In this document: positions 3,530 to 48,297 of the stretch, one piece after another
Layout of the letters: each line of letters opens with the position of its first letter
Numbering within the stretch: position 1 is the stretch's first letter
Origin: an uncultured Planctomycetia bacterium
Lineage (GTDB): Bacteria; Omnitrophota; Gorgyraeia; Gorgyraeales; Gorgyraeaceae
Direction: 5' to 3'
NCBI GenBank assembly: GCA_964566255.1
Contig: CAZMID010000001.1
Span: 10,799-74,798 of the forward strand
DNA length: 64,000 nt
The notes under the pieces: model-generated
The model's database searches: none
What the model was told of the DNA's origin: nothing
The model's input: only the letters and a program-made list of their open reading frames with translations
Position numbers and translations under genes: made by a program

Positions 3530-4012
3530 TTAGAACTCTGGTTCTTGTCTTGATCTTGTAACTTTCGAAAATGGTACCTCAACTATACCTTTCTTATTTA
3601 TATCTATCTTTATAGAATTATCCAATATCTCTTGGAGTCTTGCAATATATTCTTTTTTATCTAATATAGCTTCGTTCAGTGTAACTCTTATCATTCTTCC
3701 TTTTGCTCTTTCATAGTCCCTTTTTGTCTTAAATACCCTATCCATACCAGGGGAGTCCACTTCTACTATGTAGCTTTCTGGTATTAAGTTGGTCTCTTCT
3801 AAGATTTGACTAATCCTTTGATTTAACATCACGCAATCTGAAAGTTTTATCCCGCCAACTTTGTCTACTAAAAGTCTAAGGACTTGCCTCCTACCTTCTC
3901 TTCTATATATAATCTCTACGAGTTCAATGTCTTCTTCCTGTAAAACCGGCTCTATAATCTCTTTTAATTTATCTATCATGGGCAAATAAAAAAGCGGGTA
4001 CACTTCACCCAC
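3530..4012 (-). CDS. rimP: Ribosome maturation factor RimP.
   Basis: The internal sequence MIDKLKEIIEPVLQEEDIELVEIIYRREGRRQVLRLLVDKVGG...SPGMDRVFK is typical of RimP. The track ORF begins at a GTG directly after a stop codon. The true start may be the internal ATG (MIDKL, ~3979). An AGGGAGG SD lies 13 nt upstream of the GTG. Confidence 0.85.
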   Translation of the reverse strand: MGEVYPLFYLPMIDKLKEIIEPVLQEEDIELVEIIYRREGRRQVLRLLVDKVGGIKLSDCVMLNQRISQILEETNLIPESYIVEVDSPGMDRVFKTKRDYERAKGRMIRVTLNEAILDKKEYIARLQEILDNSIKIDINKKGIVEVPFSKVTRSRQEPEF

Positions 4013-4055
4013 TTAAAATTCAACACCTCCCTTTCGTAAGAGTAGTTATACTATA

Positions 4056-4089
4056 CTATATAGCATATATATCTGTCAAGGGAAAAATC
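4056..4089 (-). promoter_or_regulatory. Putative sigma70 promoter for the rimP-nusA-infB operon (TTGACA-18-TATAGT on the minus strand).
   Basis: Minus-strand TTGACA at 4084-4089 and TATAGT about 18 nt downstream. It sits between the giant-gene terminator and the rimP start, and is followed by an AGGGAGG SD. Confidence 0.35.
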
Positions 4090-4100
4090 CTTCTTGGAAT

Positions 4101-4152
4101 AAAAAAGCCAGTTCTTGCGTATAACAAGAACTGGCTTTAGACACCTTTTTTT
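4101..4152 (-). terminator. Rho-independent terminator downstream of the giant gene. The hairpin is flanked by T-tracts on both strands.
   Basis: Perfect 12-bp inverted repeat AGCCAGTTCTTG (4107-4118), loop cgtataa, then CAAGAACTGGCT (4126-4137). An A6 run precedes it on the plus strand, which gives a U-tract after the hairpin on the minus transcript. A T7 run follows it on the plus strand. Confidence 0.65.
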
Positions 4153-4178
4153 GATTAGGCTGGAAAAATAGCCTCTAA

Positions 4179-7100
4179 TTACACACCAGAGGCAAGTTCA
4201 TCAGCTATTTCCTTATTCAATCTATCACTAACCATATTTAATTCCATTCCGTTTGCAAAATCTTCAAGGAGTCCATCCAAGTTACTCTTGTCCTCGCTGC
4301 TTAAATTAAGCACCTGTATCCTTTTTAATTTAAGCTCATTTATTCCTCTTCCATTTACTACCTTTATCATATCAACATAACCTTCTAGATTAATAACCTT
4401 TTTATATTCATCCGCATTCATAGCTATTATTTCTATTGCATATTCTGAACTAGCATACCTGTCGCTAATCAATCTAATAAAACCTACATGTCCAAGCTCT
4501 ATTACTCTCTCCGCAGAGAAAGTAATAATTTGATTAAGCGGCCTCTTTGATTTTTCTAAATTATCAGGGCCTTTTTTTCCTTCGCGTATCATATCTAAAA
4601 CAGTATCCATTGTTTCCTCTAAGATAGTGTGTGAAGGGCCATACATAGGAATGCGAGAAATATTCATATCTGCGACTAACAATTTGTTTTTTCTTTCTTC
4701 TGTTATAGGTATTGTATCTAGTGCTCTAAAAATAGAAGATGCGATAGATCTTTGTTCGCCCTCATTTTCTTCTTGTTGTAAGTCAAGAAAAAGCTTCGTT
4801 AGTATATAATTATAGGTCAACTTTCCTGATTCTTCGAGGATTGCAAATGCCTCGTTACGGACATCAAGGTCAGGATCTTGTATGTCAGCACGGGCTTGTT
4901 CAATATGTTTTTCTTCAAGCTTAGGTGTTATCTCTACCTTTGATTCAACTCCTTCGAAGATGCGCGGTGTAATCCCATTTATTTTCTTATTAGATAGCTG
5001 GGCAGTAGTAGCGATGCGATGAGATTTATGATCATCCCCAACTGATGCCTCCCTAATAATTGAATATACAGCTTCGGTTTTACTCAATTCACCCAAGGCA
5101 GTTATAATAGCTACCATAATAGATACATTAGGATCTGAATCATCAACTGGTCCTTCAGATAAAGCTAAAATATGTTTATCTTTTGCTTCTTTCCATAATT
5201 CTAGAAGTTGTTTTTCCGCCAGAATCCCACCAAGACAAACTATGGCAGTTGTTCTCAATGGCATATAACGATCTTCATCTTTTGCCAATTTTAGTAAATC
5301 TGAAATTATACCTTCTTTTCTTTCTCCTCGAGACATTATTTTACCAAGCCTAGACTTGATAGGATCTAAAGTAGAATCATCATACTTTCCCAAATGATAT
5401 CCTAAATCAGCTGTAAGTTTTATTATTTCCTGTGTTTTTGTTAAAGATTGTAATACATCTCTAAGATTTTTAATTGATCCATCACGCATACTGCTATGAG
5501 GATCTGCTAATCCATCTTCAAACACATTAGGACCACTTTTAAGCATTACTGCACTATATAACTTTCTATTAAAATCAAATATAGTTTCATTACTTGCTAA
5601 TATATCTCTTGATGTTGAGACACTACCAGATATACTCGATGCTCCATCAGGAGAAATACTCATTCCTGCTGAAGTAATCATTGCTTTATGCCTAACTTGA
5701 TCCTTTGCTAATTCAATCAGATCTCTTGCAGCATCTTTATCTACGATAAAAGTAACCCTATCCTGATCTTGCAAAACTGATGCAGGGACCTCAGGTGTAA
5801 TTTTTCCTGCCACTGAGGCCTTAATAGCATATCTTTTCTTTGGCCCTGTAGCTACCAATAAGATCTTTTTTGCCTTTAAAATAGTAGATATGCCTTGACT
5901 CATTGCATAAGGAGGGACTGCTCTTTTATTTCCATCAAAATACCTGGAATTTGCGTTTATTGTACTTGAAATAAGCTCTACAACCTGTGTCTTTAACTTT
6001 AAAAAGTCTTCAAGGCTTATATCAAGCATTGCTTCAATAAAAGCAATATGACCCTCTTCTCCTATGCCAAGTAGCTGAAGATCTAGACCTTCTTCATTCG
6101 TTGATTTCATAATAAGATCTTCGTAAATCTCAGCTTCTAGTTCAGGAACATTTGCAAGGCCATCCATTAGATGAATATTGCTATCTTTTAATCCAGCATC
6201 TCTAATCATTGATGTCAGTATATGATCATAAAGAAAATGTCTATAAGATTCTTTATTATAATATTGCTCACGATACTCTCTTGAATATCCATATGCACTC
6301 CATACATACTCATCAAGGGCAAATATAACTACATTTGACCAGTCAATTTTTTCTTTTCTTGTAATTTCAATTAATTTTTTATATACACCTTCTTGTGTTC
6401 CACCAGTAGCTAAACCAAGAAAGGTCTTCTTTCCTCTAGCATTTTTTTCTTTGATTAGATTTGCGATTTCTTGTGCAGCACGTAATTCAGCATCATCTTT
6501 AGTCTCTGTTATATCTAACTTTTGTACCTTAGATATATCCCCGAGGGCATCTCCCCATTCAAAAGCCTGTGATGATGACACTAGCTCAACTAGAGATTTC
6601 ATATTAAAGCCAGTGGTTAGACTCATATTACTTGCTAATACAGTTGTTTCCTCTTTAGAGGTATCTGGCATATCGACCTGCTGTAAAATCTCTCTAAAAT
6701 AATACCCTGATCTATAATTCTGAGGTTTTTCTCTTGTTAAATACTCATCTATCTTAAGCTGTAACCCTGTCCTTTTAACAAGCTGATTTAGCGCTCTATC
6801 CATCTCAACAAGAGAATTCTCTTCCAGATGATTTCCTTCTACGGTGCTATTTACATTAGCATGGCCTAATTCGTGAAAGAGGCGTTCTGAAAGGATAGTT
6901 TTTACTGCCTGAGGGTAAGTAGGGTAAGCTAAAAGAAGGTCTTTGATGAAGCCTGCACTAAAAATGATTTCTACATCGCCGGTATCAAAGTTATAGTATC
7001 TTATAGAATTTAAACGTAAGCTCTCTGATACCATGACTTTTATTGGAGGTGCACGATTGTCTGGAGATAGGAACAAATCTTGTAAATATTCTTTCAGATC

Positions 7101-10100
7101 AGCATCACCTTCTACTAAACCCTCTAAATTATCCAGTGCATCATTTAACAAACTGGTTAAATTAAGGGCATTTTCACCTATAGGTGAAAATCTTTGCCCT
7201 TTAGATCTAGATAAATCCAACCCGCATTCCATATCATTTATGAAAGTATCTTTAATGTCAAAATAACTATCCAGCAGCAAATCTCCATGGCGTCTAGCAA
7301 AAGCCTTAAGCTTTCGTTTTTCTATCTGAGATCTATAAGTTGCAAATTCTGCTGCACTTCTTGCTCCTTGATAGGTTGGATCACGGCGGTCTATTCTAAT
7401 CTCTACTGGAACCTCAGGAAAATTTTCACTCAACAAGCTTTGCGCCTTATTAAATAGCATCTCGCCTATCCTGCCTCTAGCTAAAGCCCCAGTTAAAACT
7501 GTATACTTCATGTCAAAATATTTATATAACTCTACTATTGACAGCGCAAGATACTTACCAAGCTGTTCTATGGCATCCTCGGAATCGCTGTTTTTCTCTT
7601 TAAGCCTAGCTTCGATCTTTCGAACAAGTTCAATGCCTTCTAATGATTTGCTTTCTTGCGGGTAAAGCTCTTTTATGCCCCTGAAAGAAGCATAATATCT
7701 ATCCAATCCTTTTATTTTGCGATAGTCATGTTCACGTGCAAATGGTGACATATCAACAACCCTTTTTGCTAATTCAGTTAAATAAATAGAAGGTTTTAAA
7801 TTTTCATCCATAAAACCTCCTATCAAACTGTCGGACGGCGACAACACCAATACCTTTTCTCCTTCCAAATCCGTAAATAATAAGGTAGATCCAAAGGCTG
7901 TTACATTCCCGTCATTTTTTAAACTCACAGGAATTCTCTTATTTGTTAAGCTGTAAAATCTCTCTGATATCTCATCTGCCAAATTTTTTATCATATTGTA
8001 CTGCTGATCCCACCTATCAAACTCCAAAACCTTCATATCAAATAAGATGCTTGCAGATATGGCCATTTTATTATCCCTTACTGCCCCAGGCCAGGCTATG
8101 CCAATAGCATCTATATCTCTTAGAGCTCTTCCAGCATTATTGATAGATTCGTTAATAAGACTATACACTAAATAATCAATAAAATTGCTGTCTTCAAAAT
8201 TTTTCCGATCCAAAGTAAATTGTTCCTTATATAAAGGTTCGCCATTCTCCAAGATAACAATGTATCCGTGAGTCTTGCTAAGGCTTAAGCCTAATGTCAC
8301 ATCCTCATAGCGATTAAACCTGTAATAAACACCTTTCGCAGGACTTTCCTTTTTAGCCTGGATCCCTATCTCTGCTAGCCGCTGAGTATACTTGGTAATC
8401 TCGAAATCTACACCATAATATTGACTTAAATAACTGCTAACGGTCTCTGCCTCTTGCCCTTTGTCGAAATATTCGTCAAATGAGTCCTTTACAGCTTCAA
8501 AAACACTGTCCTCTGCATCAACTGCTACAGTGTCTGAACCCAACGTAACAGCTCCATTATTTATTAAAGTCGCTATATATCTGGATACAATAGCTAACTC
8601 TTCTTTGCTCATAAGCTTTGGGATAGATATATTCAAATCACGCTTCAATCTATCTTGTTCTAAAAACAACAGCGTAGTTTTATTTGTATTACCCGGATCT
8701 AATATCGCAATCATGGAAAAGATATCATCCCATTTGGTTATACTAAAGAGCTTCTCATGCTCTTCCCTCCAAATATCTGAAAAGAGTGTAGAAGCCGGCG
8801 ACTTAATTCGAGATTTATCTCCGTCAATTTCTTCTAGTGAATCCCTTAAGGCTTTATCCTTTTCCACTAAAACATCAAGAAAGAGATTAGCAAGCTGTTT
8901 CTTATCTGTAGTTCTAGATCCATTTTTCTCAAGTCTTTTTAGAAAATGCCTCGCCTCTTTCACATTGTTATCGAATATCCTAAGTAAGACCCCTTCCTTA
9001 ACTACTCCTTTTTTTAATAGAAAATCTGCAAATTTATAAGGGCTATAACCAGCAAACTTTTCATATTGCGCTAAACCTTCTGCCTTTAACCTCTTTTCCT
9101 GCCATGAGACTAGAGGCTCCTGATGTATATTATGTAAAGGCATTCCTCTTCTATTCAAATATGATATGTCCTTTTTTGTTATGTACAAAGCTCCTCTTTG
9201 CCTGCCAGCTTCTGAACGTGAACTATATAGTTCTGGGGGCTGAATAAAGGAACTGAGGTATGCCCGTTCTTCCTTGGTGACAGGCGCCTCATTCATGCCT
9301 CTAAAATTTTCATGCCTAAATAAAAAATATACATATTTATTCATATAAAGCATATCCTCTATATTAATTTCTTCCTTGCCTTTTTTGTCAACATATAAAG
9401 ATCCACCGTCTTGTCCTTCTAAACTAAAATAAAATTCTTTTCCATCACTTACCCTTACCAATACGTGTCTCAGAAGAGAAACTTCTTTTCTGCCAATCAC
9501 TTGTTTTTTTCTATTCAGATACTTAGGTTTGCCATTATCATCATTGCTAGAATGTGTATATTCAACATTTGGTGAGGTAGAATATATGGATTTACCTTCT
9601 TTTGTTACCTTCCATCTGAATAATGCCCCTGTGGCATTATCTATGAATAATGGGTTATGTTTTTTTGAAAAGTAATCTATATTATTATCATACAAAGGAG
9701 AGCCATCTACATATATAAGAGGGCTCTCTGTATTCACATAGCCCTCCTTTCCTTTACCTGTAGTAATAATATCACCTTTTTCATTTATAGGGTCTCCGAA
9801 TTCATTTGCCTCCCTTTTCTTCTGTTTAGTTTGAATCCAAGTGTCTATTTCCTTTGCGCTTGTCCTATTTACTACAATATCACTGAATATCTCACTGAAT
9901 AAAACCACTCTGCCAAGGCGTTTCTTTGCAATACGCTCTATCATCCTTACGCAATCTTCAACGCTATAATTATTCATCTCATCCATATTCACATGATTTA
10001 ATAAAAGTATCTTTTTGGCATCCTTCCTATTAATTAATGCCTCAATCACCCCATCTATAGCCAATTGGCAAACCAGACTTGAAAACAGACTTCCTGCCCC

Positions 10101-13100
10101 AACTATAATAGTACCTATTCTAGGGTCCTTTATAGATTCTATATATTGATTGCTCGGGCGAGGTAATAATTTAAAATTGTCCTTACTCACAGATACATCA
10201 ACATCTGCTATTTTTGAATCATGGCGCAGGACATCAATAAAACGCTGCCCATATACACGTGCGGGCAAAGCATCTTTTCTTTCTCTTACTATGAATTCTT
10301 CTACAGCATCTTTACCAAAAATCTCAACTAACCGCTTTTCCTCTTCCTTAGTTACTTCAGGATAATCTGCCCAAAGAATAGCTTCATTATAAGTAGGATA
10401 AAAAATTTGAGGGATGCCCACCTTTTCTATATCAAGTCCCCATACCATAGCCAATATATCATTGGCTAATGTCGCTTTTTCCTCATCTACTCCATTTACT
10501 CCTTTATCTCCGCATCTCCTATATGCCCTAAGTTTAAAATATACAGCAAGGTTATTGAGATTTCTTATGCTGTTGCCCTTTAAGGTAAAAGTAGTATAAA
10601 GGTTTTTATTCTTGGGTGAAAGGAATTCATTGTCAATTATCCTGGCTATATTTAACTGGTCCGACAAGAACGAAATAACACCTGGTGTATTAAAAAACTG
10701 CTCCTCCAACGGTCTATTTTTATCTTCAGCCAATAACAGTTTAATTTTTTCTAATAAAACTTCCTCTAAAGAATCCGACTCTTTATCTGGTCTGTAGTCA
10801 AGTAAATCTGCAAAGGTTGATTTCCGCATAACATCTGCCAGTACACCCGGACCATCTCCTTCAGTAGATACGCTTCCGAAAATAGGTCTTATAGATTCTA
10901 TAATTTTTCCTGTACTGCCTCCGTCATCAGTGGAAGGAGAGCCCACCTTAATATTTAAACCTAGTAGCTGGCATGCCCTAAGAGTTACCTCTTTCATGCC
11001 TCCTCCGCCTCCAATTACCAGAACCTGTGGAGGAATCTCTTTTCTAATCTCTATGGCTTCTTTTTCTTTATGCGACAGGACCCTATTATCCAAGACTCCC
11101 AAAATTACCCTAGCCACAGTATCTCCAGTAGAAAATGCCTCTTTTAGTATTTCACCGTCAAGGATTTCTTTAACTTGAGCTTTACTCTTATTAGAATACC
11201 TAAGCTTATATATATCAAGGAGTGTTTTATAATTATCACTTGTTTCGATTTCACGAATAGAAATAGGACGTCTTATTTCTGCATACCCTTTAAGCTCAGA
11301 GTGTAAAAAATAATTGTTTAGGTATTTTTCTATAACAAAATTTCTTCGCTGAGGAGTACACTTCAAGAGAGTACCTAAGAATCTAAAGTAACAGCCTGAC
11401 TTAAATGCTGGCCTTTGAGTCTCAAAGTAATCACTGATTACTTCTTGGGTGGTTTTAGTTCCTATAATCTGCTCGCTAACCAATTTATGGAACTCAATGT
11501 CTCTATGAATCAGTTTTCTCTCTTCAGCTCTTTCTTTTTCAACTAAGTCCAGCTCGTTATCATGGCCTAATTCATGAAAATATCTCTCTGCAAGAATTGT
11601 TACAACAGCCTCAAAATGAGATTCATAATCTTTAAGAAGTGTATCTATATAGGATTGGGAAAAGATTAATTCTACTTCTCCAGTACTAGCGTTAAAGTAA
11701 CGAACGGCGGTTAGGGGGAGCATGGATGATACCTTTACTCTTATTGCCGGGTCGTTGTTATCAGGCTTTGATAATACACTTGCAAAATATTCTTTTAACC
11801 CAGGGTCGTCCTCTATTATAGACTCTATAATTCCAAAAGATGCGTTTGAAAGTTCTGCTAATATTGATGCCTGCATATAATCATCCGCTGCTTTGAATCT
11901 CTGAGGTTCAGGCCTAGATAAATCCAATGTTAATTCATATTCTTCTTTGAAGGAACCTTCTAGTGCAGAATAAAAGATTATATTTCCATCACTAGCAAAC
12001 GTCTTTAGCAATCCACTAGCAGTATGTCTCCTCTCAACCTCTTCATAATCCAAAGACTCCTTTAAATCCTTATATGAAAACCCTTCAAACTGCTTAACAT
12101 CCCAGGTTTTCTTAGGGTCGACTTCGATATCTACCTCTACTTCTATGTTTCTTTTTGTTCCTTGGGTATCTACAGGAATATCGGTAATTACTTTGTCGGC
12201 ACGAGCTATTACTTTATCATCTGGCCTATAGAGCGCAACTGCCAAGCTTCCTGAATGTGCATCTATCTCATCTACGACACTGTTCACTATAACAGCGCCT
12301 TTTCTAACGATACCTTTATTTATACGTGTATTACCTAAAATAACAGCGCCTTTTTCTACAACTACGTCTTTACCTAATACAGCTTTATTGTCTATAATTG
12401 AGGAGGGCTGCATAAAAGAATATCCTGTAACCTGCCTCAATATGTCATCACTAAGAAGATTAGTGCATCCTAAGTAATAACGCTGGTTGGTTCCTAAGTC
12501 TGTTATATAGGTCTCTTTTCCTGTATATACGAATCCAAAATCTACTCCGGCAGCAGCTAATTCTCCTGCACGCTTGCCAACATCCTGATTTAAATCCTGA
12601 GCCTTTAAGTTGATATCTGGTCCATTGGGAATGCCTTTTGGATCAACAAATCTCTCAATAGCTTCCTGGTCAAGATGGTATACAGTAAGGTTATTGACAG
12701 GATGGTATACTGTATCAGAATATCTTTTTAAGTAATCTATCTCCTGGGGTGACTTTCTCTTATACATCGCTACAAATCTGCCGTTACTATCTACTTCTAT
12801 CTTGCCAAAATAATCGAATTCTGGATGGCCTAGTTCAACCCCGCCTCCTAATAACTGAACCCCATGTTCACCTAACCCTTTAACAGGCTCGGTTATACTG
12901 AATATCCTGTCTGTAGGCATACTTATTATACCTGTATCATTCTCTCCTAAAAGCTGCATACTCTGACGTATGGCCTGAAAGATATTAGGTTCGCCGTTTA
13001 TTGAACTCATAAACCCTTTATTGCCATAGCCATCTGAAGCAGTAAGAGGATATGTCCTCTTGCCGTCTCCTCCTGTCAAGACTGTAACTACACGCTCTTT

Positions 13101-16100
13101 ATCAAAATTTACCCCGCCCTTGTATAGTTTATCTAAGCCTCGTAAAAACGCCGAGAGGTTTCCATCAATATCATCATCCTGGACATAGATTATGACAGGG
13201 ACTGTTCCTTCTTCTCGTCTTTTCCTCATTGCATCCTGAATAACCGAATCATCAGTATCCTTATTTACTACCAGGATAACACTATTTTGAGGGATAACTT
13301 TCCCCCTTGCGCCTTCCAGAGACTGTTTAATTTGTTCTAGTCCGTCTGATTTTAATAAAAGAATAATGGCATCATGATACACTCTTGAATCAGCCAGCCC
13401 TTTTTCTAGGCGTGCCCTCTGTATGTGTATTCCATACTCTGGTGAATCGCTAAATCTGCGAGCTATCTCTTCTTCAGATAAAGGAGCGCCCTGCGTAGAA
13501 TAAAGTCCGTCTGCCACCTGCAGACCCATATATGCTGCACCTACTGTCTGTCCGAACCTTGCGGCAAATTCACTGTTAAATTCCTTGCTTATACCCTTTC
13601 CTACCTGTCTTACATAATCATCTTCTGAGGCGAGCAGTATATTTACTGTCTCTCTATCTCCTATTTCTTTGGTTAAATATTTCCTTGCTGATTCAGTTAT
13701 TAATCTACCAGCCATACCGCTGGTACACGCCCCGAACAATACAACATGTTCTATTTTAAGGTCTTTTAAGCTAGTTGCTACGGCTACTGCGAGATAAGAG
13801 CCAATGGTCTTAAAGATTTTTTCTGCTTCTTGCCTTTCAGGGTTTGTTTTAGGAAGCTCTAATTTACTCTGTACATACTTTAACTTAGGCCTGTTTCCGA
13901 TTGCCTTTTTAAACTCTTCTAGTTTACTCCCGGTTAAACTGGCCTTGACATGAGAGACAATATCATCTTTATTATCAAGATTAATTTTTTCTTTGGCAGC
14001 GAATCTTCGGGCTACAATCTCTTCAAACCCTTTATCAAAATCAGGCCATACCTTGCGGGCAAGATGTAAAACGCCTCTTTGTGAAGTATACTGCTGAAGA
14101 GCGCCTCTTATCCTCAACCCCTCATGATATCCAGCTTCACTGGACAAATCTATACTACATTTACCCATCTCACCAAGATAGTCATTCAATTGACCTTTAT
14201 TATCTACATATCCTGCGGCCAATCCAGTGCCTAAGCTTAAGGCCAATACATTATTTAGCCCTAATGTACCGGCTAAAGACAATGCTGCTGCATCTCCATC
14301 ATTTAATACTCCTACAGGCACTCCTCCCAATGATTCGCTTATGCGCCTTCCCATAGGAGCCACCTTTGTCCAAAATTCTTCAGAACCTATTCCTCTATAT
14401 GCCCTGGTACCTTCCTGAGTAATCCTTCCATTGACAACAGCCCCTGCTGTACTAAGGCCTATGCCATCAAGTTTAACCTCTGAAATACCAGCAGTATATA
14501 CTCCTTCTATAAAGCTTTCTATTTCCTCAAGAGGGGTATTGGCATTATGCGCCAATTCTTTGAGTTTTCCTTTCAATTCACGTTTTGATCTAGAGCTAGT
14601 TTTTTCAACCTCTATGGCGGCCTTGGCTAAGCGTACCATGGTGACAAAATAACTTAAATGTTCATCTGAATTCTTGAATTTATACGACTCCCAGTTTATT
14701 TCCTTGGCAAAGATACAGCGGCCTTCTATAAATGAAGCTACCTTTACATCGCTTGCGCCTACATCCATTCCTACAATCATACCTCTATGATAATCTTGGG
14801 CAGGGGCTGATTCTTGCTGACTTAACTCGATATCTTCTGAATCAATCTTATCTGCAGACTCTATCTTAAACTTAGTCTCATATATACAGCTAAAATAAGA
14901 AGGGATACGGCTGTAGAGACCTTTTGTAAATAAACGTTCTATTCTCTGGTATAGTTCCTTAGGAGCCTTTATCTTTATGCCTTCAGCGCCAATACGTGAT
15001 AGGGTACTTGCGATCTCGAGGCATAAATAATCAGCCAATTCATCCAATTGGGTATCATCCATTCTTGTAATCGCAGGAATAGCAATTGACCTTCTGTGGT
15101 AGACAGCACCCTTGCTTGTAAGGCCTATTTCCACAGAGTTCTCTGCAGATAATTCCTCATATTGACGTTCCCTTTCAGTGATGGGTGCAAAGGATATACC
15201 TTCATTACTTGCTAATACGTCTGATTCTTTTCTAGTTAAATAATGTTCAACCTTGCCAAAGAAGCGTTCCACATCCTGTTCTGCATCTTTGACAGTTGAA
15301 TCAAATGTAATAAGCATTGTCTTACGGCCTCTATCTACTGTAGCACCTATTGCAGCTATCAGCTGCGCCCTTATTAAATTATCGCTAAATTCTAATGCGT
15401 CGGGTTGCTCCATAACATCGGGCATAAATAATGTATCAACCCACATGTCTTTACCATATTGCTTGTTCTGTTCAGTAGAATGAAGCTTATCAGGTGCTGG
15501 TGAAATTTTAGAAGCTATCTTAAGGCCATTTGTAAATATTTCAGTTTTTGCTGCTTGCAAGATACCTTCCATATCTTCTGTCATTCTTCCATAAAACCCG
15601 AATTCCTTTGCCTCAAAATCAGGTTTTGACTCTAATATTTTTATAATCGCTGCTGCATATACTGCAGGCGCATCATTCATATCTGAACCTAATTTTCTAA
15701 CTCCAGTCTCGAGGTCATCCTGAGTAAGAATACCAGCTGCAATCAACCTGTCATAATATAAATTGAGCTTACCAAATGAAACACTCTTCCAGTCTTCTGG
15801 AATCTCTACTTTCTGATCTGACCCTAAGTCATCCATTATCTTAGTTAGAATCTTTTTATAATCCTGTACTCCTTCTTGATCAACAGCGCAAATATCCCAT
15901 AGATAAGCCACTGTTATTACAGATCTCTGAAAGCCAAGCATTATACCTCCCAGAGAATCTATATCATCAACATCTATTTCAAATACAGGGTATCTATTTT
16001 TCTTCAAATGGCTCCAGAATTCATCATTGGTCTTTTTGTCTCCTACATTTATCCTCAAAAACACCCTGTCACTATCTTCAACATCCTTAAGGGACGCGAT

Positions 16101-19100
16101 AGAAAGATCCTCATCATAAAATAGGCTGATGCCTTTTCCTTCCTTTCCTAAAGATTCTTCAATGAGCTGCTCTGCCCACACAGGCAGATTTTGAAGTTCC
16201 TTTGGCACCATTAGAGTCAACTTATCCTTACCTAATTCAGCTGCCATATAGTAAAGATAGGCACCCAAGATTATAAAGGTATCCTCGTTTATATCTTTAA
16301 TATCATTCATCTTCAGCGCTACCTCAAGTATTTTTTCTACTTTTTCAGGCGCCGAAATCGCCAATACAAGGAGAAATACCAATGTCTGAGGGCTAGTAAA
16401 CCTGCCCCCTATATCTCCTTCTCCATTAAGCTGTATCTCTCGCTGTTCATAACCATGTTCATCCATTGGAGAACCTTTATCAGTTATAACCCACATATGA
16501 TCTTCGGGTTCAATATTAAATTTCTTAAATAAGTCAAATAACTCTTCAAAATATCCTTTCTGATCTACGGTTTCCCTAGTAGTTCCTGATTTACTGATAG
16601 GAATGACAAGGGTTTCTAATAATGCCTTTTCTAAAGAACCAGCATCTTCTGCTATTACATCAAACATATACTTTATTTCTTCAGGGGTTGTTGTTCTAAA
16701 ACTAAATATCTTATAGCCTCCTGGCTCTCCAAATGTTATTTTAACGACCTGAACACTTAAACCAGATCCGCCCATTCCACAGAATATAATATATTTAAAC
16801 TTACTTCTTATCTCTTCAGCATCGTCAAGCACACTCTGTATCTTTTCAGGATTTTTAAGTAGCCATTTCAGATTCTTAACGGTCCAACCTGCGCGGTTCT
16901 TTGGGGGTTCTTCAGGGTTACTTGCATCAAAAATCGCCTTAAGCATTTTCGAAGAAACCAAATCCTCTGCTTCCTCAAAAGATGTTCCATAGACTGCATG
17001 CATCTGGCCGCGTATATCTTCCTGACCTAATTGCAGCAAAATATCATCTAATCTGGTATCCTCCATAATTCCAGTATCTAAGGTATGATTACTTGCTAAC
17101 ACATCTGATTTCTTAGCTTTTGCAATTGTAAAAGTTGCCTCAGCTGCTGGAGATGGTTCATATGATAGATCCATTAATGCCTTTTTCATTGCAGGACCAC
17201 TCAGAGTAGGATCAATTTTCTCTCCAGATGCTACACCTATAAAATCACCTATATCTGTAACTATGGTTTCTTTGGTTTGAGTATGAACTATTATTATGCT
17301 CTCTGGCTGGACCATTACATTAATATCACCTGTAAGCGTCTCTCGGAATTGAGGCGTAAACATCTTCTGCAGTTTTGCTGCTAATTTTTTACTTTCTATA
17401 CCTTTATCCCTAAGAACAGCTACCCCAACAGAAACTACTGCCATGAGAATTCTTTGAGTCTTTAATTCTTTACCGCCTTCTATATTAGGAACAACCTTGT
17501 TATTAAAATCATCCACAAAATCTGGTTTTACAAATGTAGCTATGATAGGGCACCTTAAAGTATCGTTTAAACCCTTAAGAAGTTCTTCTATGGGTTTACG
17601 TTTTCCTGAGAGTAGAAAATGATAATTCTCTTCATCTATATCAGTAGATGAATAAGGGGATACCACTACATAGGAATAGCCTTTTTCTCTTAGAAGCTTT
17701 GTGATACCTTTTGTGTGGAATCCTCCTGCAACAAGACTAGCTACCTTAGCATCGCGCTTTTCTATCTCAGAAACAGAATTTCTTACCATTGCAACGTCAC
17801 GCTGTCTTACAGTCTTATAGAAGTCCTCAAGCCCCTGAAGATGAAAATCTATGAGATTTGGATTATAGTCTATAAAGGCGGAGATATCATGTTTTTTAAG
17901 GGCTGGCTTTAGAAAGGATTTAAAAAAACCTACTTTGTGAGACTCTCTATTAGCTAAGTAATAATCAAGTTCTTCATTTGATACCTTTAAATTAAAAAAC
18001 CCTTCCAAGAATTTGATGTTCCGGAGGGCTTTAATGAATGTCTTTTGTTCGTCAGTCTTTGCAAGTCGCATCTTCACTTCATAGGTAAGATCTTCCATTT
18101 CAGTGAAGAGCTTCGTAGAATCTAAAGAGTTTACCTTTGTGAGATAGCTTAAGAAGTCATTAAGATTAGGGTATTTTGAGATCTTATCCGGGATATGTTT
18201 TAAGGCTAGATCTTTTAAATAGCTATAAAATGAAAAAGGGGATATCTTCTGTTCCCTAAAAAGCTTGGCCTTTACCATCAATGCATCTTTATCTTTGCGC
18301 AATTTTCTGCCTGAAAGCTTTGCCTGCAGATTTAAAAGTAGATTCTGAGATTCCTGCATTACCTTTACTTGATTAATCTTTTGTTCCTGCTCTGTAGCCT
18401 CAGTTAAAAGTGAGATGTTTCTATACTTATCTGTGGAGATGTCGAATTTTCTTACATAGGAAGTAAGATGTTTTAAAAATGCGTCTGTTTCTATTTTTTC
18501 ATTCTCATAATCAACTTCTTTTTGGTCTAAATTTAGAAGCTCTTTTGAATAAATCTTAGATTTAAGCTGATCTAATGCCTTCTGAGCCTGAGAGATAAAG
18601 ACCTGGGATTTGGGGGAGAATTTCATAATGCGGTTAAATTCTATGATGTTCTTAAAATAGATATCTCTATCTTCTATCCCCCAGATAGGTAGGTCTGGGT
18701 ATTTTGTAATAGAGAGGTATTCTTCTCCTGTTAGTTCACCTGAATTTATAAATAGACGTGCTGTCTTTTCCCTTATCTCATAATCTGGAAAGCTTGACAC
18801 GCTGGATGTATCTACTTCTCCATCTGCTCCTTCTGAGCAGACTAAGCCCATATTGTAATCTTTTAAAAGAATCTCTAAGATACTCGCAAGATTAAGTTCT
18901 GCCTCTGGGTTTGTGTGTAAATCCTGTATGTGGACTATAAGGCGTGAATCTTTTGAAGGAGATTCATATACTTCTGTGACCCTTCCTAATTCTGACGGTA
19001 TATGTATCTGAGAGAGGTCTTTTAAATGGGATGAGAGGACGACTTTTGCTTCTTTTCTATGCTTTTCTGCCTTCTTAGTATCTTCTCCTTCAAAGATAGA

Positions 19101-19283
19101 CTTTTTCTTATTGAGGCGATCTTCTCGCTGGGTACTAAGCTTTTTATAATCTACTTTTTTGTCCTTGAAGAGAGAGCGACGACTTGGAGCTCCATAAGCA
19201 GTATTAGTGCATATAAAAGCTATAAGAACTATTACAGAAATAATCTTTTTAGCTGTCTTACAATTCATATATCTTCCTCTCAT
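4179..19283 (-). CDS. Giant (5034 aa) secreted multidomain protein carrying a PGI-like SIS domain, two ROK sugar-kinase domains, a sugar-1-P nucleotidyltransferase with LbH, a CofD/YvcK domain, a NagB-like deaminase domain and HEAT repeats. It also has two HELGH zincin-like motifs inside an internally duplicated block.
   Basis: The reading frame is uninterrupted for 15,105 nt in DNA at roughly 33% GC, which cannot occur by chance. The N-terminus MRGRYMNCKTAKKIISVIVLIAFICTNTAYGAPSRR is a Sec-type signal peptide. An AGGA SD favours the second ATG at 19268. Domain motifs, with approximate aa positions: GMGGSG and DIGGRFTS (PGI/SIS, ~800-1250); MIVGMDVGASD and VLNDGDAAALS (ROK 1, ~1500-1800); VLTGGDGKRTYPLT plus hexapeptide repeats (NTP transferase with LbH, ~2060-2470); FHELGH (2570 and 4137); VIGGGGG...STDDGGSTG...IIVGAGSLFSS (CofD/YvcK, ~2740-3130); NDGNVTAFG (ROK 2, ~3690-4010); LGLATGGT...FALDEY...GIGEEGHIAF (NagB-like, ~4270-4520); DPDLDVRNEA-type HEAT repeats (~4640-4800). 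Confidence 0.9.
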   Translation of the reverse strand: MRGRYMNCKTAKKIISVIVLIAFICTNTAYGAPSRRSLFKDKKVDYKKLSTQREDRLNKKKSIFEGEDTKKAEKHRKEAKVVLSSHLKDLSQIHIPSELGRVTEVYESPSKDSRLIVHIQDLHTNPEAELNLASILEILLKDYNMGLVCSEGADGEVDTSSVSSFPDYEIREKTARLFINSGELTGEEYLSITKYPDLPIWGIEDRDIYFKNIIEFNRIMKFSPKSQVFISQAQKALDQLKSKIYSKELLNLDQKEVDYENEKIETDAFLKHLTSYVRKFDISTDKYRNISLLTEATEQEQKINQVKVMQESQNLLLNLQAKLSGRKLRKDKDALMVKAKLFREQKISPFSFYSYLKDLALKHIPDKISKYPNLNDFLSYLTKVNSLDSTKLFTEMEDLTYEVKMRLAKTDEQKTFIKALRNIKFLEGFFNLKVSNEELDYYLANRESHKVGFFKSFLKPALKKHDISAFIDYNPNLIDFHLQGLEDFYKTVRQRDVAMVRNSVSEIEKRDAKVASLVAGGFHTKGITKLLREKGYSYVVVSPYSSTDIDEENYHFLLSGKRKPIEELLKGLNDTLRCPIIATFVKPDFVDDFNNKVVPNIEGGKELKTQRILMAVVSVGVAVLRDKGIESKKLAAKLQKMFTPQFRETLTGDINVMVQPESIIIVHTQTKETIVTDIGDFIGVASGEKIDPTLSGPAMKKALMDLSYEPSPAAEATFTIAKAKKSDVLASNHTLDTGIMEDTRLDDILLQLGQEDIRGQMHAVYGTSFEEAEDLVSSKMLKAIFDASNPEEPPKNRAGWTVKNLKWLLKNPEKIQSVLDDAEEIRSKFKYIIFCGMGGSGLSVQVVKITFGEPGGYKIFSFRTTTPEEIKYMFDVIAEDAGSLEKALLETLVIPISKSGTTRETVDQKGYFEELFDLFKKFNIEPEDHMWVITDKGSPMDEHGYEQREIQLNGEGDIGGRFTSPQTLVFLLVLAISAPEKVEKILEVALKMNDIKDINEDTFIILGAYLYYMAAELGKDKLTLMVPKELQNLPVWAEQLIEESLGKEGKGISLFYDEDLSIASLKDVEDSDRVFLRINVGDKKTNDEFWSHLKKNRYPVFEIDVDDIDSLGGIMLGFQRSVITVAYLWDICAVDQEGVQDYKKILTKIMDDLGSDQKVEIPEDWKSVSFGKLNLYYDRLIAAGILTQDDLETGVRKLGSDMNDAPAVYAAAIIKILESKPDFEAKEFGFYGRMTEDMEGILQAAKTEIFTNGLKIASKISPAPDKLHSTEQNKQYGKDMWVDTLFMPDVMEQPDALEFSDNLIRAQLIAAIGATVDRGRKTMLITFDSTVKDAEQDVERFFGKVEHYLTRKESDVLASNEGISFAPITERERQYEELSAENSVEIGLTSKGAVYHRRSIAIPAITRMDDTQLDELADYLCLEIASTLSRIGAEGIKIKAPKELYQRIERLFTKGLYSRIPSYFSCIYETKFKIESADKIDSEDIELSQQESAPAQDYHRGMIVGMDVGASDVKVASFIEGRCIFAKEINWESYKFKNSDEHLSYFVTMVRLAKAAIEVEKTSSRSKRELKGKLKELAHNANTPLEEIESFIEGVYTAGISEVKLDGIGLSTAGAVVNGRITQEGTRAYRGIGSEEFWTKVAPMGRRISESLGGVPVGVLNDGDAAALSLAGTLGLNNVLALSLGTGLAAGYVDNKGQLNDYLGEMGKCSIDLSSEAGYHEGLRIRGALQQYTSQRGVLHLARKVWPDFDKGFEEIVARRFAAKEKINLDNKDDIVSHVKASLTGSKLEEFKKAIGNRPKLKYVQSKLELPKTNPERQEAEKIFKTIGSYLAVAVATSLKDLKIEHVVLFGACTSGMAGRLITESARKYLTKEIGDRETVNILLASEDDYVRQVGKGISKEFNSEFAARFGQTVGAAYMGLQVADGLYSTQGAPLSEEEIARRFSDSPEYGIHIQRARLEKGLADSRVYHDAIILLLKSDGLEQIKQSLEGARGKVIPQNSVILVVNKDTDDSVIQDAMRKRREEGTVPVIIYVQDDDIDGNLSAFLRGLDKLYKGGVNFDKERVVTVLTGGDGKRTYPLTASDGYGNKGFMSSINGEPNIFQAIRQSMQLLGENDTGIISMPTDRIFSITEPVKGLGEHGVQLLGGGVELGHPEFDYFGKIEVDSNGRFVAMYKRKSPQEIDYLKRYSDTVYHPVNNLTVYHLDQEAIERFVDPKGIPNGPDINLKAQDLNQDVGKRAGELAAAGVDFGFVYTGKETYITDLGTNQRYYLGCTNLLSDDILRQVTGYSFMQPSSIIDNKAVLGKDVVVEKGAVILGNTRINKGIVRKGAVIVNSVVDEIDAHSGSLAVALYRPDDKVIARADKVITDIPVDTQGTKRNIEVEVDIEVDPKKTWDVKQFEGFSYKDLKESLDYEEVERRHTASGLLKTFASDGNIIFYSALEGSFKEEYELTLDLSRPEPQRFKAADDYMQASILAELSNASFGIIESIIEDDPGLKEYFASVLSKPDNNDPAIRVKVSSMLPLTAVRYFNASTGEVELIFSQSYIDTLLKDYESHFEAVVTILAERYFHELGHDNELDLVEKERAEERKLIHRDIEFHKLVSEQIIGTKTTQEVISDYFETQRPAFKSGCYFRFLGTLLKCTPQRRNFVIEKYLNNYFLHSELKGYAEIRRPISIREIETSDNYKTLLDIYKLRYSNKSKAQVKEILDGEILKEAFSTGDTVARVILGVLDNRVLSHKEKEAIEIRKEIPPQVLVIGGGGGMKEVTLRACQLLGLNIKVGSPSTDDGGSTGKIIESIRPIFGSVSTEGDGPGVLADVMRKSTFADLLDYRPDKESDSLEEVLLEKIKLLLAEDKNRPLEEQFFNTPGVISFLSDQLNIARIIDNEFLSPKNKNLYTTFTLKGNSIRNLNNLAVYFKLRAYRRCGDKGVNGVDEEKATLANDILAMVWGLDIEKVGIPQIFYPTYNEAILWADYPEVTKEEEKRLVEIFGKDAVEEFIVRERKDALPARVYGQRFIDVLRHDSKIADVDVSVSKDNFKLLPRPSNQYIESIKDPRIGTIIVGAGSLFSSLVCQLAIDGVIEALINRKDAKKILLLNHVNMDEMNNYSVEDCVRMIERIAKKRLGRVVLFSEIFSDIVVNRTSAKEIDTWIQTKQKKREANEFGDPINEKGDIITTGKGKEGYVNTESPLIYVDGSPLYDNNIDYFSKKHNPLFIDNATGALFRWKVTKEGKSIYSTSPNVEYTHSSNDDNGKPKYLNRKKQVIGRKEVSLLRHVLVRVSDGKEFYFSLEGQDGGSLYVDKKGKEEINIEDMLYMNKYVYFLFRHENFRGMNEAPVTKEERAYLSSFIQPPELYSSRSEAGRQRGALYITKKDISYLNRRGMPLHNIHQEPLVSWQEKRLKAEGLAQYEKFAGYSPYKFADFLLKKGVVKEGVLLRIFDNNVKEARHFLKRLEKNGSRTTDKKQLANLFLDVLVEKDKALRDSLEEIDGDKSRIKSPASTLFSDIWREEHEKLFSITKWDDIFSMIAILDPGNTNKTTLLFLEQDRLKRDLNISIPKLMSKEELAIVSRYIATLINNGAVTLGSDTVAVDAEDSVFEAVKDSFDEYFDKGQEAETVSSYLSQYYGVDFEITKYTQRLAEIGIQAKKESPAKGVYYRFNRYEDVTLGLSLSKTHGYIVILENGEPLYKEQFTLDRKNFEDSNFIDYLVYSLINESINNAGRALRDIDAIGIAWPGAVRDNKMAISASILFDMKVLEFDRWDQQYNMIKNLADEISERFYSLTNKRIPVSLKNDGNVTAFGSTLLFTDLEGEKVLVLSPSDSLIGGFMDENLKPSIYLTELAKRVVDMSPFAREHDYRKIKGLDRYYASFRGIKELYPQESKSLEGIELVRKIEARLKEKNSDSEDAIEQLGKYLALSIVELYKYFDMKYTVLTGALARGRIGEMLFNKAQSLLSENFPEVPVEIRIDRRDPTYQGARSAAEFATYRSQIEKRKLKAFARRHGDLLLDSYFDIKDTFINDMECGLDLSRSKGQRFSPIGENALNLTSLLNDALDNLEGLVEGDADLKEYLQDLFLSPDNRAPPIKVMVSESLRLNSIRYYNFDTGDVEIIFSAGFIKDLLLAYPTYPQAVKTILSERLFHELGHANVNSTVEGNHLEENSLVEMDRALNQLVKRTGLQLKIDEYLTREKPQNYRSGYYFREILQQVDMPDTSKEETTVLASNMSLTTGFNMKSLVELVSSSQAFEWGDALGDISKVQKLDITETKDDAELRAAQEIANLIKEKNARGKKTFLGLATGGTQEGVYKKLIEITRKEKIDWSNVVIFALDEYVWSAYGYSREYREQYYNKESYRHFLYDHILTSMIRDAGLKDSNIHLMDGLANVPELEAEIYEDLIMKSTNEEGLDLQLLGIGEEGHIAFIEAMLDISLEDFLKLKTQVVELISSTINANSRYFDGNKRAVPPYAMSQGISTILKAKKILLVATGPKKRYAIKASVAGKITPEVPASVLQDQDRVTFIVDKDAARDLIELAKDQVRHKAMITSAGMSISPDGASSISGSVSTSRDILASNETIFDFNRKLYSAVMLKSGPNVFEDGLADPHSSMRDGSIKNLRDVLQSLTKTQEIIKLTADLGYHLGKYDDSTLDPIKSRLGKIMSRGERKEGIISDLLKLAKDEDRYMPLRTTAIVCLGGILAEKQLLELWKEAKDKHILALSEGPVDDSDPNVSIMVAIITALGELSKTEAVYSIIREASVGDDHKSHRIATTAQLSNKKINGITPRIFEGVESKVEITPKLEEKHIEQARADIQDPDLDVRNEAFAILEESGKLTYNYILTKLFLDLQQEENEGEQRSIASSIFRALDTIPITEERKNKLLVADMNISRIPMYGPSHTILEETMDTVLDMIREGKKGPDNLEKSKRPLNQIITFSAERVIELGHVGFIRLISDRYASSEYAIEIIAMNADEYKKVINLEGYVDMIKVVNGRGINELKLKRIQVLNLSSEDKSNLDGLLEDFANGMELNMVSDRLNKEIADELASGV
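6640..7135 (-). repeat. Copy B of the duplicated HELGH module inside the giant ORF (aa ~4050-4215).
   Basis: LKEYLQDLFLSPDNRAPPIKVMVSESLRLNSIRYYNFDTGDVEIIFSAGFIKDLLLAY...ILSERLFHELGHAN...RSGYYFREIL. Confidence 0.6.
11330..11850 (-). repeat. Copy A of an internally duplicated ~170 aa module with an FHELGH motif inside the giant ORF (aa ~2480-2650).
   Basis: LKEYFASVLSKPDNNDPAIRVKVSSMLPLTAVRYFNASTGEVELIFSQSYIDTLLKDY...ILAERYFHELGHDN...KSGCYFRFL aligns residue by residue with copy B. The nucleotide string atggcctaattc[a/g]tgaaa is shared. Confidence 0.6.
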
Positions 19284-19357: not shown

Positions 19358-19386
19358 AGTATATCACGTAAACGTTTCCTCGTCAA
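19358..19386 (-). promoter_or_regulatory. Putative sigma70 promoter of the giant gene (TTGACG-17-TATACT on the minus strand).
   Basis: Minus-strand TTGACG (plus cgtcaa, 19381-19386), a 17-nt spacer, then TATACT (plus agtata, 19358-19363). It lies ~70-85 nt upstream of the giant-gene start codons. No hairpin separates it from the proS stop. Confidence 0.4.
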
Positions 19387-39103: not shown

Positions 39104-39715
39104 TTATTTTCCTAGTATGTAACTAGTTAATTCTATATGCGCTCTTATTCTAGGCGCTATATCATCATCCTTTTCAATGTCTACATCTTCTATAGTAATC
39201 ATAGGGGTATTATTTGCCTTAAGGCTCATCAAAAATTCCCCTAATAGACGATATCTTGCTTCAACTGTTAAACTTAAAGGCATGCATTTACATATATAAT
39301 CTGATATATTAAGTTCTTTACCATCATGGCCTTTATAATTTTCAAGATCCCTTGGCGTTACTGAAATAACACTTACACCAAAACGCCTTGCTTCTTTGTT
39401 TAACTCTTTTATTACATTCGATACTTCCTTTTCAGAAGGAAATACATTATCAAGTAAAGCCATATTTTGTTGTATTTCCATAATGCTATCTTTTAAGTTC
39501 TCGCTGCCGCCAATAAAACTATAGAGAGATTCTACTTCTTCTTTTATCTTTTTATATTCAGCTTCTAACATCCGTACCTTTTTTACTTTAGAAACATACA
39601 CGACTTGAAATAATAGGATTATAACTATAGAAATAACAATAGGTTTAATAGCCTTTTTATCCTTTAAAATAGAAGAAAATTTTATATTTTTATATTTATC
39701 TAATATTTTTAACAT
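39104..39715 (-). CDS. pilO: Type IV pilus assembly protein PilO-like.
   Basis: 203 aa with an N-terminal TM helix, a coiled-coil segment and a periplasmic domain. It is positioned after pilM/N. Confidence 0.5.
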   Translation of the reverse strand: MLKILDKYKNIKFSSILKDKKAIKPIVISIVIILLFQVVYVSKVKKVRMLEAEYKKIKEEVESLYSFIGGSENLKDSIMEIQQNMALLDNVFPSEKEVSNVIKELNKEARRFGVSVISVTPRDLENYKGHDGKELNISDYICKCMPLSLTVEARYRLLGEFLMSLKANNTPMITIEDVDIEKDDDIAPRIRAHIELTSYILGK

Positions 39716-41288: not shown

Positions 41289-41318
41289 ATTATACTACCA
41301 TACTTATAAGGATTCATG

Positions 41319-42990: not shown

Positions 42991-42992
42991 AG

Positions 42993-43373
42993 TTAGTAAT
43001 TCGCCAGAATCGTCTTTAAACTTATATCCCCTATTATTGCATTTGTTATGCGTACTTCTACTTGTTTATAATTTTCCATATCCTCATCATCCTCAATATC
43101 CTCAGGTACTGGATCTACTCTAACCTGCCATGAATAATTACTGAAATTTCCTGTAAAATCCTCGGGGGAATCTCTATTTTCATCATCAACGTCTGAGAAA
43201 TCCAATCTTATAACCCTTTCCATTTCTCCTCTTGCTAAGTTCACTGCAACAGCCACAGCTTCATCTCGAGTCGCATTCGTAAACACCCCTGTAAATACAG
43301 CTATTAAACCTAAAGATATAATACCTATAACTACTATTGATATAATTGTCTCTATTAAAGTAAAACCCTTCAT
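42993..43373 (-). CDS. Type IV minor pilin (PilV-like).
   Basis: 126 aa. MKGFTLIETIISIVVIGIISLGL is a prepilin motif. Confidence 0.7.
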   Translation of the reverse strand: MKGFTLIETIISIVVIGIISLGLIAVFTGVFTNATRDEAVAVAVNLARGEMERVIRLDFSDVDDENRDSPEDFTGNFSNYSWQVRVDPVPEDIEDDEDMENYKQVEVRITNAIIGDISLKTILANY

Positions 43374-48295: not shown

Positions 48296-48297
48296 TA

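Follow-up and report, generated by a model that had tools for sequence, protein, structure and literature searches.

A giant Omnitrophota protein with conserved caps, sugar-enzyme cassettes and LASN junctions as candidate processing sites

A single unbroken open reading frame (ORF) on the minus strand of a 64,000-nucleotide stretch of DNA from the candidate phylum Omnitrophota (contig CAZMID010000001.1; the whole stretch is referred to as the window) encodes a giant protein of 5,034 amino acids (aa). The gene was assigned to an Omnitrophota-specific family built from conserved caps and exchangeable enzyme cassettes and probably processed at short junctions between them, an explanation to which, taken as a whole, we give a probability of about one half. 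The protein consists of a Sec-like segment, an N-terminal cap (N-cap) with a TIKI/erythromycin-esterase fold, variable enzyme cassettes, and a C-terminal cap (C-cap) of ~125 aa that closes the protein (Table 1). The cassettes follow each other in the order PGI-like isomerase, a block of 2.9 thousand residues (2.9 kaa) and NagB deaminase, the block being made up of a glucokinase-like ROK module, a GlgC-like nucleotidyltransferase, a zincin-like domain, a YvcK-like module, an unknown stretch, a degenerate ROK module and a second zincin-like domain. An earlier note on this DNA, made from the sequence alone, had described window positions 5724-16916 (residues 790-4520) as a chain of six sugar-metabolic modules in a protein with a secretion signal. 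Six enzyme-like modules do lie at these positions in one ORF, every motif string quoted for them was found in the sequence, and profile matches bore out that a signal-peptide-like N-terminus is followed by a chain of sugar-metabolic modules. Absent from the note were both caps, the zincin-like domains and the LASN junctions described below.

The same ORF, encoding an identical protein, was found in JGI 3300009374, ENA ERZ23499057, JGI 3300009405 and Logan SRR8062331, and is therefore considered real and not an assembly artefact. No point was found in favour of a chimeric assembly or of several pseudogenes fused in a row, and the probability of such an origin is negligible; the ORF is intact across 15.1 kb and in these independent assemblies, its GC content (0.30-0.40 across the window) and strand bias equal those of the neighbouring genes, and dozens of homologous long ORFs are present in other genomes.

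Caps, zincin-like domains and family relatives

The N-terminus shows an n-h-c layout (MRGRYMNCKTAKK, IISVIVLIAFIC and TNTAYG, followed by AP), as judged by inspection and family conservation and not by a predictor. The c-region pattern [A/V/L]-Y-[A/S/G] followed by [A/E/Q], with small residues at -3 and -1, is kept in the family from 23% to 73% identity. No hydrophobic stretch other than residues 1-31 reaches transmembrane strength. A further transmembrane or stop-transfer helix at residues 612-624 was considered and rejected, as it comprises 13 hydrophobic residues only and its homologue in relatives is charged.

The N-cap (~480 aa) has the alpha/beta TIKI fold and a set of conserved residues, H118, Q120, D121, H123, E151, E188, E204 and G520-G521-F522-H523, among which D121, H123, E151 and H523 show little or no variation. 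Members of the TIKI/erythromycin-esterase/ChaN/TraB superfamily include Tiki, RRSP, EreA-C and Bcr135/136; the N-cap itself has no detectable sequence similarity to any model of Pfam or NCBIfam, and none matched within residues 1-733. In RRSP (H3902/E3930) and Bcr135 (H85/E113) the acid-x-His...Glu...His set has a His-Glu spacing of 28 (PMC6254334), which equals the spacing between H123 and E151. Mapped by spacing and conservation, D121-x-H123, E151 and H523 thus appear to reproduce the 2His/2Glu set of the superfamily in the form Asp/His/Glu/His. The N-cap differs from the other members in that its fold is split by a helical insertion of ~300 aa, and in that the first acidic residue is Asp and not Glu.

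A search with residues 1-733 matched 69 proteins, all from Omnitrophota where named, and many of these are proteins of ~570 aa that consist of the N-cap alone. In a profile scan of GTDB species genomes at least 499 loci were confirmed, often several per genome, and in most of the genome loci examined the N-cap heads ORFs of 1,000 to >4,000 aa (overall range from 500 aa). Nearly all of 78 related loci belong to Omnitrophota/Omnitrophica metagenome-assembled genomes, and the remaining ones carry the title "uncultured Planctomycetia" or "uncultured bacterium". The family of the N-cap is restricted to Omnitrophota.

Elsewhere, N-cap-headed proteins carry PGK; NagB; PGI; GDH with enolase and UDP-glucose pyrophosphorylase; UDPGP with PGM (in some cases also PGI); FBPase with class II aldolase; pyruvate phosphate dikinase (PPDK); CMP kinase with a methyltransferase; and ParB-N or FHA domains. 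The family cargo is thus mostly predicted to serve central carbon metabolism. Several cassettes appear circularly permuted, as judged from the order of their domains. In L015 (751-10392; PCTH01000062.1), Enolase_C (aa 1639-1936) stands ahead of Enolase_N (2065-2173) and ELFV_dehydrog (618-774) ahead of ELFV_dehydrog_N (909-1008), and in L009 (10001-16069) an HGTSGSD-like motif at about aa 1500 is followed, at aa 1688-1771, by the N-terminal part of the class II aldolase (profile positions 5-87). In one further family protein, P0061, the cap is followed by an inserted intein (HINT; Pfam PF14890) that is unrelated to the LASN junctions.

Family members end in x-[G/S/N/Q]-[V/I/L], and the giant protein in ...LASGV. 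Word-indexed searches with the C-cap and with the HELGH domain gave no matches. One of the ten relatives in which the C-cap is terminal is a protein of 4,352 aa from Ca. Gorgyraea atricola (L005:1-11719, JAVCCW010000002.1), which ends in ...AIVSGV and contains a TASN junction. Immediately downstream of its gene come a separate gene for an N-cap protein of 572 aa, and rimP. No N-cap occurs in the portion of the large protein that was read, its 3,301 C-terminal residues. Cap and cargo therefore appear to be split into separate genes at the same chromosomal position in this organism.

The zincin-like domain, present in two copies, is of a rare HExxH...E type. It combines HExxH with a downstream Glu ligand, and H152, E153, H156 and E170 (M2 numbering) are invariant across 21 sequences. 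Its family was recovered solely by exhaustive HMM search, and a Foldseek search of the HELGH domain against the PDB gave no significant match. In other proteins the domain often has a conserved x-F-A-P motif before it and a guanylate-kinase-like P-loop module after it. Several giants with this domain, including P0070, P0076 and P0090, contain a different repeated junction-like motif, [K/P][A/S]SSAG, and the C-termini of such giants read ...[L/I/V]xAA or ...SSA.

LASN junctions and probable processing

LASN occurs at four sites that exactly flank the PGI-like and NagB cassettes, one pair to each. This is 4 observed against 0.1 expected (Poisson P=3.7e-6), and in an unbiased scan of the cargo of 58 family proteins LASN was the top-enriched 4-mer (18 observed, 2.0 expected), while 269,434 control residues from other ORFs of the same loci showed no enrichment (3 observed, 5.6 expected). 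The extended consensus is LASN-x-[G/N/S/T]-[L/I], and the linker residues around it are not conserved. That four residues stay constant in linkers otherwise free to vary suggests that a protein recognizes them.

The junctions recur in different architectures. The PGI cassette (residues 724-1350) is 56% identical to residues 2237-2853 of L023, where a PGM cassette precedes PGI and the PGI cassette begins at an aligned LASN; the NagB cassette (residues 4197-4527) is 50% identical to residues 453-774 of P0055, where it has LASN on both sides and stands directly between N-cap and C-cap. In both cases the adjoining sequence is unrelated, and LASN is therefore regarded as the cassette boundary. The junction Ser codon is AGT in this gene and TCN in other genomes, where it varies even within one protein, which points to selection on the peptide and not on the nucleotide sequence. 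At the level of sequence, these comparisons show that selection maintains LASN as a peptide in different genomes and that members exchange cassettes at the borders which it marks.

We propose that the LASN junctions would be endoproteolytic processing sites at which the polyprotein is cut into about five pieces: the N-cap, PGI, the big block, NagB, and a HEAT-like stretch with the C-cap. Processing is favoured because in several members a junction separates the caps too from the cargo, and because the N-cap has an apparently intact active-site set and belongs to a superfamily that includes site-specific endopeptidases. The cutter would most plausibly be the N-cap hydrolase, a domain that all LASN-bearing proteins seen possess, or else a trans-acting protease. 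The zincin-like domains are probably not responsible, and their role as a cis protease for LASN was rejected, because LASN occurs in ten other N-cap proteins that all lack the domain. Processing of Omnitrophota giants has been proposed before, with sites not known, in the searchable text of West-Roberts et al. (bioRxiv 10.1101/2023.11.21.568195).

Three other causes of the motif were examined and rejected. Intein/HINT-type cleavage at Asn is contradicted by the absence of HINT motifs at the junctions. An N-glycosylation sequon (N-x-S/T) fits three of the four sites, but most family sites read N-x-G or N-x-N. A nucleotide-level signal common to the family is incompatible with codons that differ between genomes.

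Several observations weigh against processing at LASN. All four junctions share an identical 12-nt core (TTAGCAAGTAAT) that is absent elsewhere in the 64 kb and has dissimilar flanks, and given codon usage the chance of identical codon choice at four junctions is ~5e-6. This hints at gene conversion or cassette recombination in this lineage, a DNA-level process that proteolysis leaves unexplained and that may be an alternative or additional cause of conservation. L009, with FBPase, FBA and the C-cap, contains no LASN-like motif, so that the architecture can do without the junction. A position-weight scan with a crude matrix detected no hidden fifth junction in the 2.9-kaa central block. The conserved linker could instead serve docking, flexibility or recombination. 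The TIKI superfamily also includes esterases and non-enzymes, and the catalytic mapping of the N-cap comes from spacing and conservation. With regard to location, the early mature region after the signal-like segment is rich in Lys/Arg, which is unusual among exported proteins, and ATP/UTP-dependent enzymes fit poorly outside the cytoplasm, in conflict with a signal peptide.

The serious rival is an unprocessed, membrane-tethered multi-enzyme scaffold (a metabolon) that faces the cytoplasm, is anchored by its N-terminal hydrophobic segment and keeps its enzymes in one chain to channel hexose phosphates into the cell's own glycolysis, with LASN as a conserved flexible linker or recombination joint. 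We consider it possible though rather doubtful. The strongly positive region after the hydrophobic segment, the lack of junctions in L009 and the identical 12-nt core all suit such a scaffold, as does the housekeeping nature of the family cargo, which needs ATP, UTP and NAD. The neighbourhood is of the same kind (proS-[giant]-rimP-nusA-infB), with an N-cap gene in the same position in Ca. Gorgyraea atricola, and the reported lack of stand-alone hexokinase and PGI in most complete Omnitrophota genomes (see below) points the same way. A signal-peptidase-like site conserved over such a range of identity would, however, be unexpected in an uncleaved anchor, and the persistence of LASN across synonymous Ser codon families while its flanks vary points to recognition of the peptide. 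Junctions between both caps and the cargo are likewise hard to square with a pure tether. Because the signal-peptidase-like site is conserved, we lean slightly towards export rather than the cytoplasmic side; both the cleavage and the cellular location of the giant protein are inferred here from sequence features.

Enzyme modules and their chemistry

Profile searches and catalytic-residue checks supported the module identities of the earlier note to different degrees. The PGI-like and NagB modules are strong identifications by profile and motif. Residues 803-1338 matched NF007080, a bifunctional transaldolase/PGI (E=3e-44, 151 bits, cut-off 712), and several PGI equivalogs at 1e-14 to 1e-16, and scored 20.6 bits with Pfam PGI (PF00342), under the cut-off of 22. 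The motifs GGRF[ST] (DIGGRFTS 957), E-S-x-G-K (EESLGK 1042) and DQxGVxxYK (DQEGVQDYK 1135) are retained, so that the Glu and Lys motifs could be recognized; the catalytic His could not be placed with confidence, the candidate being LHSTEQ at 1267, C-terminal to the Lys motif. The NagB module matched TIGR00502 (E=5e-53, 180 bits, under the equivalog cut-off of 236.9) and PF01182 (64.9 bits, over the cut-off of 27). On alignment to 5HJ5 (E. coli numbering), equivalents of the catalytic Asp72/His143/Glu148 (D in FALDEY, H and E in GEEGHIAFIE) and of the phosphate-binding Arg172/Lys208 (R in NANSRYF, K in GPKKRYA) are kept, and the Asp141 position is occupied by Glu.

The CofD/YvcK identification is moderate. 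The module scored 58.7 bits with PF01933 (cut-off 30) and 53.8 bits with TIGR01826 YvcK (E=2e-14), under the subfamily cut-off of 196, and its N-terminal GGGxG...DDGGSTG and C-terminal GxGSLxxS motifs align to the YvcK-type structure 2PPV on either side of an insertion of ~230 aa. The two ROK-like kinase modules are graded as weak to moderate by their profile scores. Scanned alone, ROK1 fell just under the cut-off of Pfam ROK (PF00480; E=1e-4, 22.4 bits, cut-off 22.9) and matched the ROK glucokinase TIGR00744 (E=1.9e-6) and the PDB glucokinase 2QM1 (E=4e-6). Its catalytic Asp (VLNDGDAAALS) and G-T-G phosphate motif (LSLGTGLAAG) are both present, and the Cys positions of the zinc-binding CxCGxxGCxE motif are substituted (YHEGLRIRGALQ; alignment to 2QM1). 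ROK2 is a paralogue of ROK1 (25% identity, E=1e-13) and exceeded the Pfam ROK cut-off when scanned alone (E=4.5e-7, 30.1 bits, cut-off 22.9). It keeps N-D, has LSPSDSLIGG where G-T-G is expected, and also lacks the zinc-binding Cys motif.

The nucleotidyltransferase/hexapeptide module retains the GGxGxR..PLT motif, and its profile matches are all sub-threshold (GlgC 1.5e-3 and 9e-3, Hexapep 3.4e-3, GlmU 3.7e-4), with a best PDB match at E=0.16. A homologue of this unit (29.5% identity) is found in an N-cap protein of CP070780.1 (L080). The module may be weakly regarded as closer to GlgC than to GlmU.

The cassettes are homologous to the stand-alone enzymes described by NF007080 (Tal-PGI), TIGR00502 (NagB), TIGR01826 (YvcK), TIGR00744 (ROK glucokinase) and GlgC, with catalytic motifs largely kept, but are embedded in a chain of 5 kaa and score far under the curated equivalog cut-offs in every case. 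Routine annotation would therefore miss or under-call them. Most complete Omnitrophota genomes reportedly lack hexokinase and PGI as stand-alone enzymes (25/176 and 67/176), and sub-threshold cassettes may account for this lack. The low scores also suit an improbable alternative in which the modules are mostly non-catalytic, surface-displayed binding or adhesion units derived from sugar enzymes. The loss of G-T-G in ROK2 and the lack of the Zn motif in both ROK modules agree with it, as does the fact that YvcK-type proteins are ligand-binding regulators; it conflicts with the retained catalytic and phosphate-binding residues of NagB, the Glu and Lys motifs of the PGI-like module, and the catalytic Asp and ATP motifs of ROK1.

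The earlier note had held that every module converges on amino-sugar and UDP-sugar chemistry. Only the NagB and YvcK-like modules point there, and the amino-sugar focus was overstated, as PGI, the glucokinase-like ROK and the GlgC-like module point to hexose-phosphate and ADP-glucose chemistry. Going by the module assignments, the chemistry is better termed the hexose-phosphate node (glucose, glucose 6-phosphate (G6P), fructose 6-phosphate (F6P), glucosamine 6-phosphate (GlcN6P), and glucose 1-phosphate (G1P)/NDP-glucose) than amino- or UDP-sugar metabolism. On the polyprotein explanation, the freed enzymes would act at this node (glucose to G6P, G6P to and from F6P, GlcN6P to F6P, G1P to NDP-glucose) and would feed sugars and amino sugars into glycolysis.

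This bears on the minor rival, already raised in the earlier note, of an exported or injected MARTX-like multi-effector that drains or rewires the wall precursors (GlcNAc-6P, GlcN-6P, UDP-sugars) of a host or prey cell. Amino/UDP-sugar specificity is seen in only two of the six modules, and the family cargo, a near-complete glycolysis/gluconeogenesis set with a CMP kinase and a methyltransferase, resembles the cell's own metabolism more than a toxin arsenal. The giant protein does share with MARTX toxins a giant modular layout in which conserved N- and C-terminal regions surround variable, recombination-shuffled enzyme cassettes with junctions and a built-in hydrolase-like domain, and the MARTX cassette RRSP has the TIKI fold of the N-cap, a fold common to the delivered effectors HopBA1 and RRSP. 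The signal-peptide-like N-terminus, the host dependence inferred for Omnitrophota in the literature and a type II secretion system/type IV pilus (T2SS/T4P)-like cluster 20-30 kb upstream, of a kind reported beside Omnitrophota giants in the searchable text of the literature, would also suit an effector. In MARTX, however, the short sites between cassettes are cut by a built-in protease, while here processing is only inferred. RTX/glycine-rich repeats, the C80 cysteine protease domain (CPD) and the C-terminal type I secretion (T1SS) signal have no Pfam or NCBIfam match in the protein, and Pfam scans gave no translocation apparatus. The giant protein further differs in its N-terminal Sec-like signal and in a cargo of central-metabolism enzymes instead of cytotoxic effectors, and its gene lies in a housekeeping context, with no mobile elements (recombinase or transposase) among the genes of the window. 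We therefore regard an effector as unlikely and the likeness to MARTX as architectural only.

Genomic context and relation to known giants

The gene lies between proS and rimP-nusA-infB, with uppS-cdsA-dxr-rseP-ispG upstream, and all genes of the window are on the minus strand. A foreign or mobile-element origin was rejected, since neither recombinase nor transposase genes were found in the 64 kb and the composition of the gene equals that of its neighbours. A promoter-like site and a terminator-like hairpin flank the gene (Table 1), and tRNA and Rfam scans of the window gave no matches. The rest of the window is core chromosome, encoding lipopolysaccharide (LPS) core and lipid A genes, Lpt proteins, ClpP, trigger factor, H+-PPase, purA, serA and the T4P/T2SS-like cluster. 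This cluster (39104-49971, minus strand) contains PilO, a PilM-PilN fusion, a prepilin-type N-methylation protein, GspF and GspE. The LPS core run (50867-63895, minus strand) contains a KdsD-like SIS+CBS protein, KdsA, KdsB, a PfkB-family kinase, three GT9 heptosyltransferases, GT4 glycosyltransferases and one GT4-GT9 fusion, and therefore confirms a diderm envelope; the host is a diderm bacterium.

Table 1. Features of the giant gene and its flanks in window coordinates.
Feature	Residues	Window position	Strand	Basis or remarks
Whole ORF, 5,034 aa		4179..19283 (stop codon included)	-	Identical protein in independent assemblies
Sec-type signal-peptide-like segment, putative cleavage site AYG/AP	1-31	19191..19283	-	Inspection and family conservation
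N-terminal cap, TIKI/erythromycin-esterase/ChaN/TraB-like fold with ~300-aa helical insertion	95-575	17559..19001	-	Conserved residues
Junction 1, LASN (TTAGCAAGTAAT)	729-732	17088..17099	-	
PGI-like cassette, SIS fold	733-1356	15216..17087	-	GMGGSG 836, GGRFT 957, EESLGK 1042, DQEGVQDYK 1135
Junction 2, LASN	1357-1360	15204..15215	-	
ROK/ASKHA sugar-kinase-like module 1	1500-1890	13614..14786	-	DxGxS, N-D and G-T-G kept; Zn-Cys motif absent
GlgC-like nucleotidyltransferase motif (GGDGKRTYPLT) and left-handed beta-helix hexapeptide repeats	2060-2370	12174..13106	-	Weak evidence
Zincin-like HExxH...E domain, copy 1	2415-2640	11364..12041	-	FHELGH at 2569
CofD/YvcK-like module with ~230-aa insertion	2750-3146	9846..11036	-	PF01933, TIGR01826, 2PPV alignment
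ROK-like module 2	3660-3962	7398..8306	-	Divergent paralogue of module 1; N-D kept, G-T-G lost
Zincin-like HExxH...E domain, copy 2	3986-4203	6675..7328	-	FHELGH at 4136; 37.5% identical to copy 1
Junction 3, LASN	4216-4219	6627..6638	-	In low-pLDDT tail of M2 model
NagB-type GlcN6P deaminase cassette	4255-4524	5712..6521	-	Profile matches; catalytic residues retained
Junction 4, LASN	4562-4565	5589..5600	-	
C-terminal cap, ends ...ELASGV-COOH	4910-5034	4182..4556	-	jackhmmer; conserved, always terminal in 10 family proteins
Promoter-like site TTGACG-17-TATACT, with TG		19358..19386	-	~75 nt upstream of the ATG; consensus match only
Terminator-like hairpin, 15-bp stem and T-run		4104..4138	-	Directly after the stop codon; consensus match only

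The statement in the earlier note that such a protein has no described counterpart was wrong. The searchable text of West-Roberts et al. describes Omnitrophota giants with glucose-phosphate isomerase, PGM, FBPase and aldolase domains, and that of a second study (bioRxiv 10.64898/2026.06.07.730766) a "multi-enzyme metabolic cluster" class of the same phylum that includes ROK kinases. In these giants, as far as this text goes, many distinct sugar-enzyme domains (PGI, ROK, PGM) tile one polypeptide, with a signal peptide or membrane anchor and a T2SS/T4P-like locus nearby, as here, and processing is suspected. The class is marked by many enzyme families of which none is dominant, and the present protein combines PGI, two ROK modules, GlgC-like/LbH, CofD and NagB with two zincin-like copies. 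It is shorter than the catalogued giants, which start at 10-30 kaa (class 1, at least 10,000 aa) in the searchable text, and the proteases proposed for them (C39, S8) are absent from it. We consider it a short member of these known multi-enzyme giants. The searchable text of the papers gives Pfam content only, and describes no TIKI-like N-cap, C-cap, HExxH...E domain, or junction or cleavage motif.

Giant multi-enzyme proteins are a hallmark of Omnitrophota. In the 2023 study, missing cleavage-point information blocked further analysis (searchable text of bioRxiv 10.1101/2023.11.21.568195). LASN at the cassette borders and a phylum-wide, hydrolase-like N-cap give concrete testable hypotheses on whether and where the giants are cut. 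As a tentative extension, Omnitrophota may make much of their central carbon metabolism (glycolysis, gluconeogenesis and the entry of hexoses and amino sugars) as cap-and-cassette polyproteins, from which a TIKI-fold N-cap protease would free the enzymes at LASN-x-G-L/I in this clade or at [A/S]SSAG in another. If true, these cells would use a polyprotein strategy resembling that of viruses, in which cassettes are shuffled at the junctions, and the same sites would supply the long-sought cleavage points of the Omnitrophota giant proteins.

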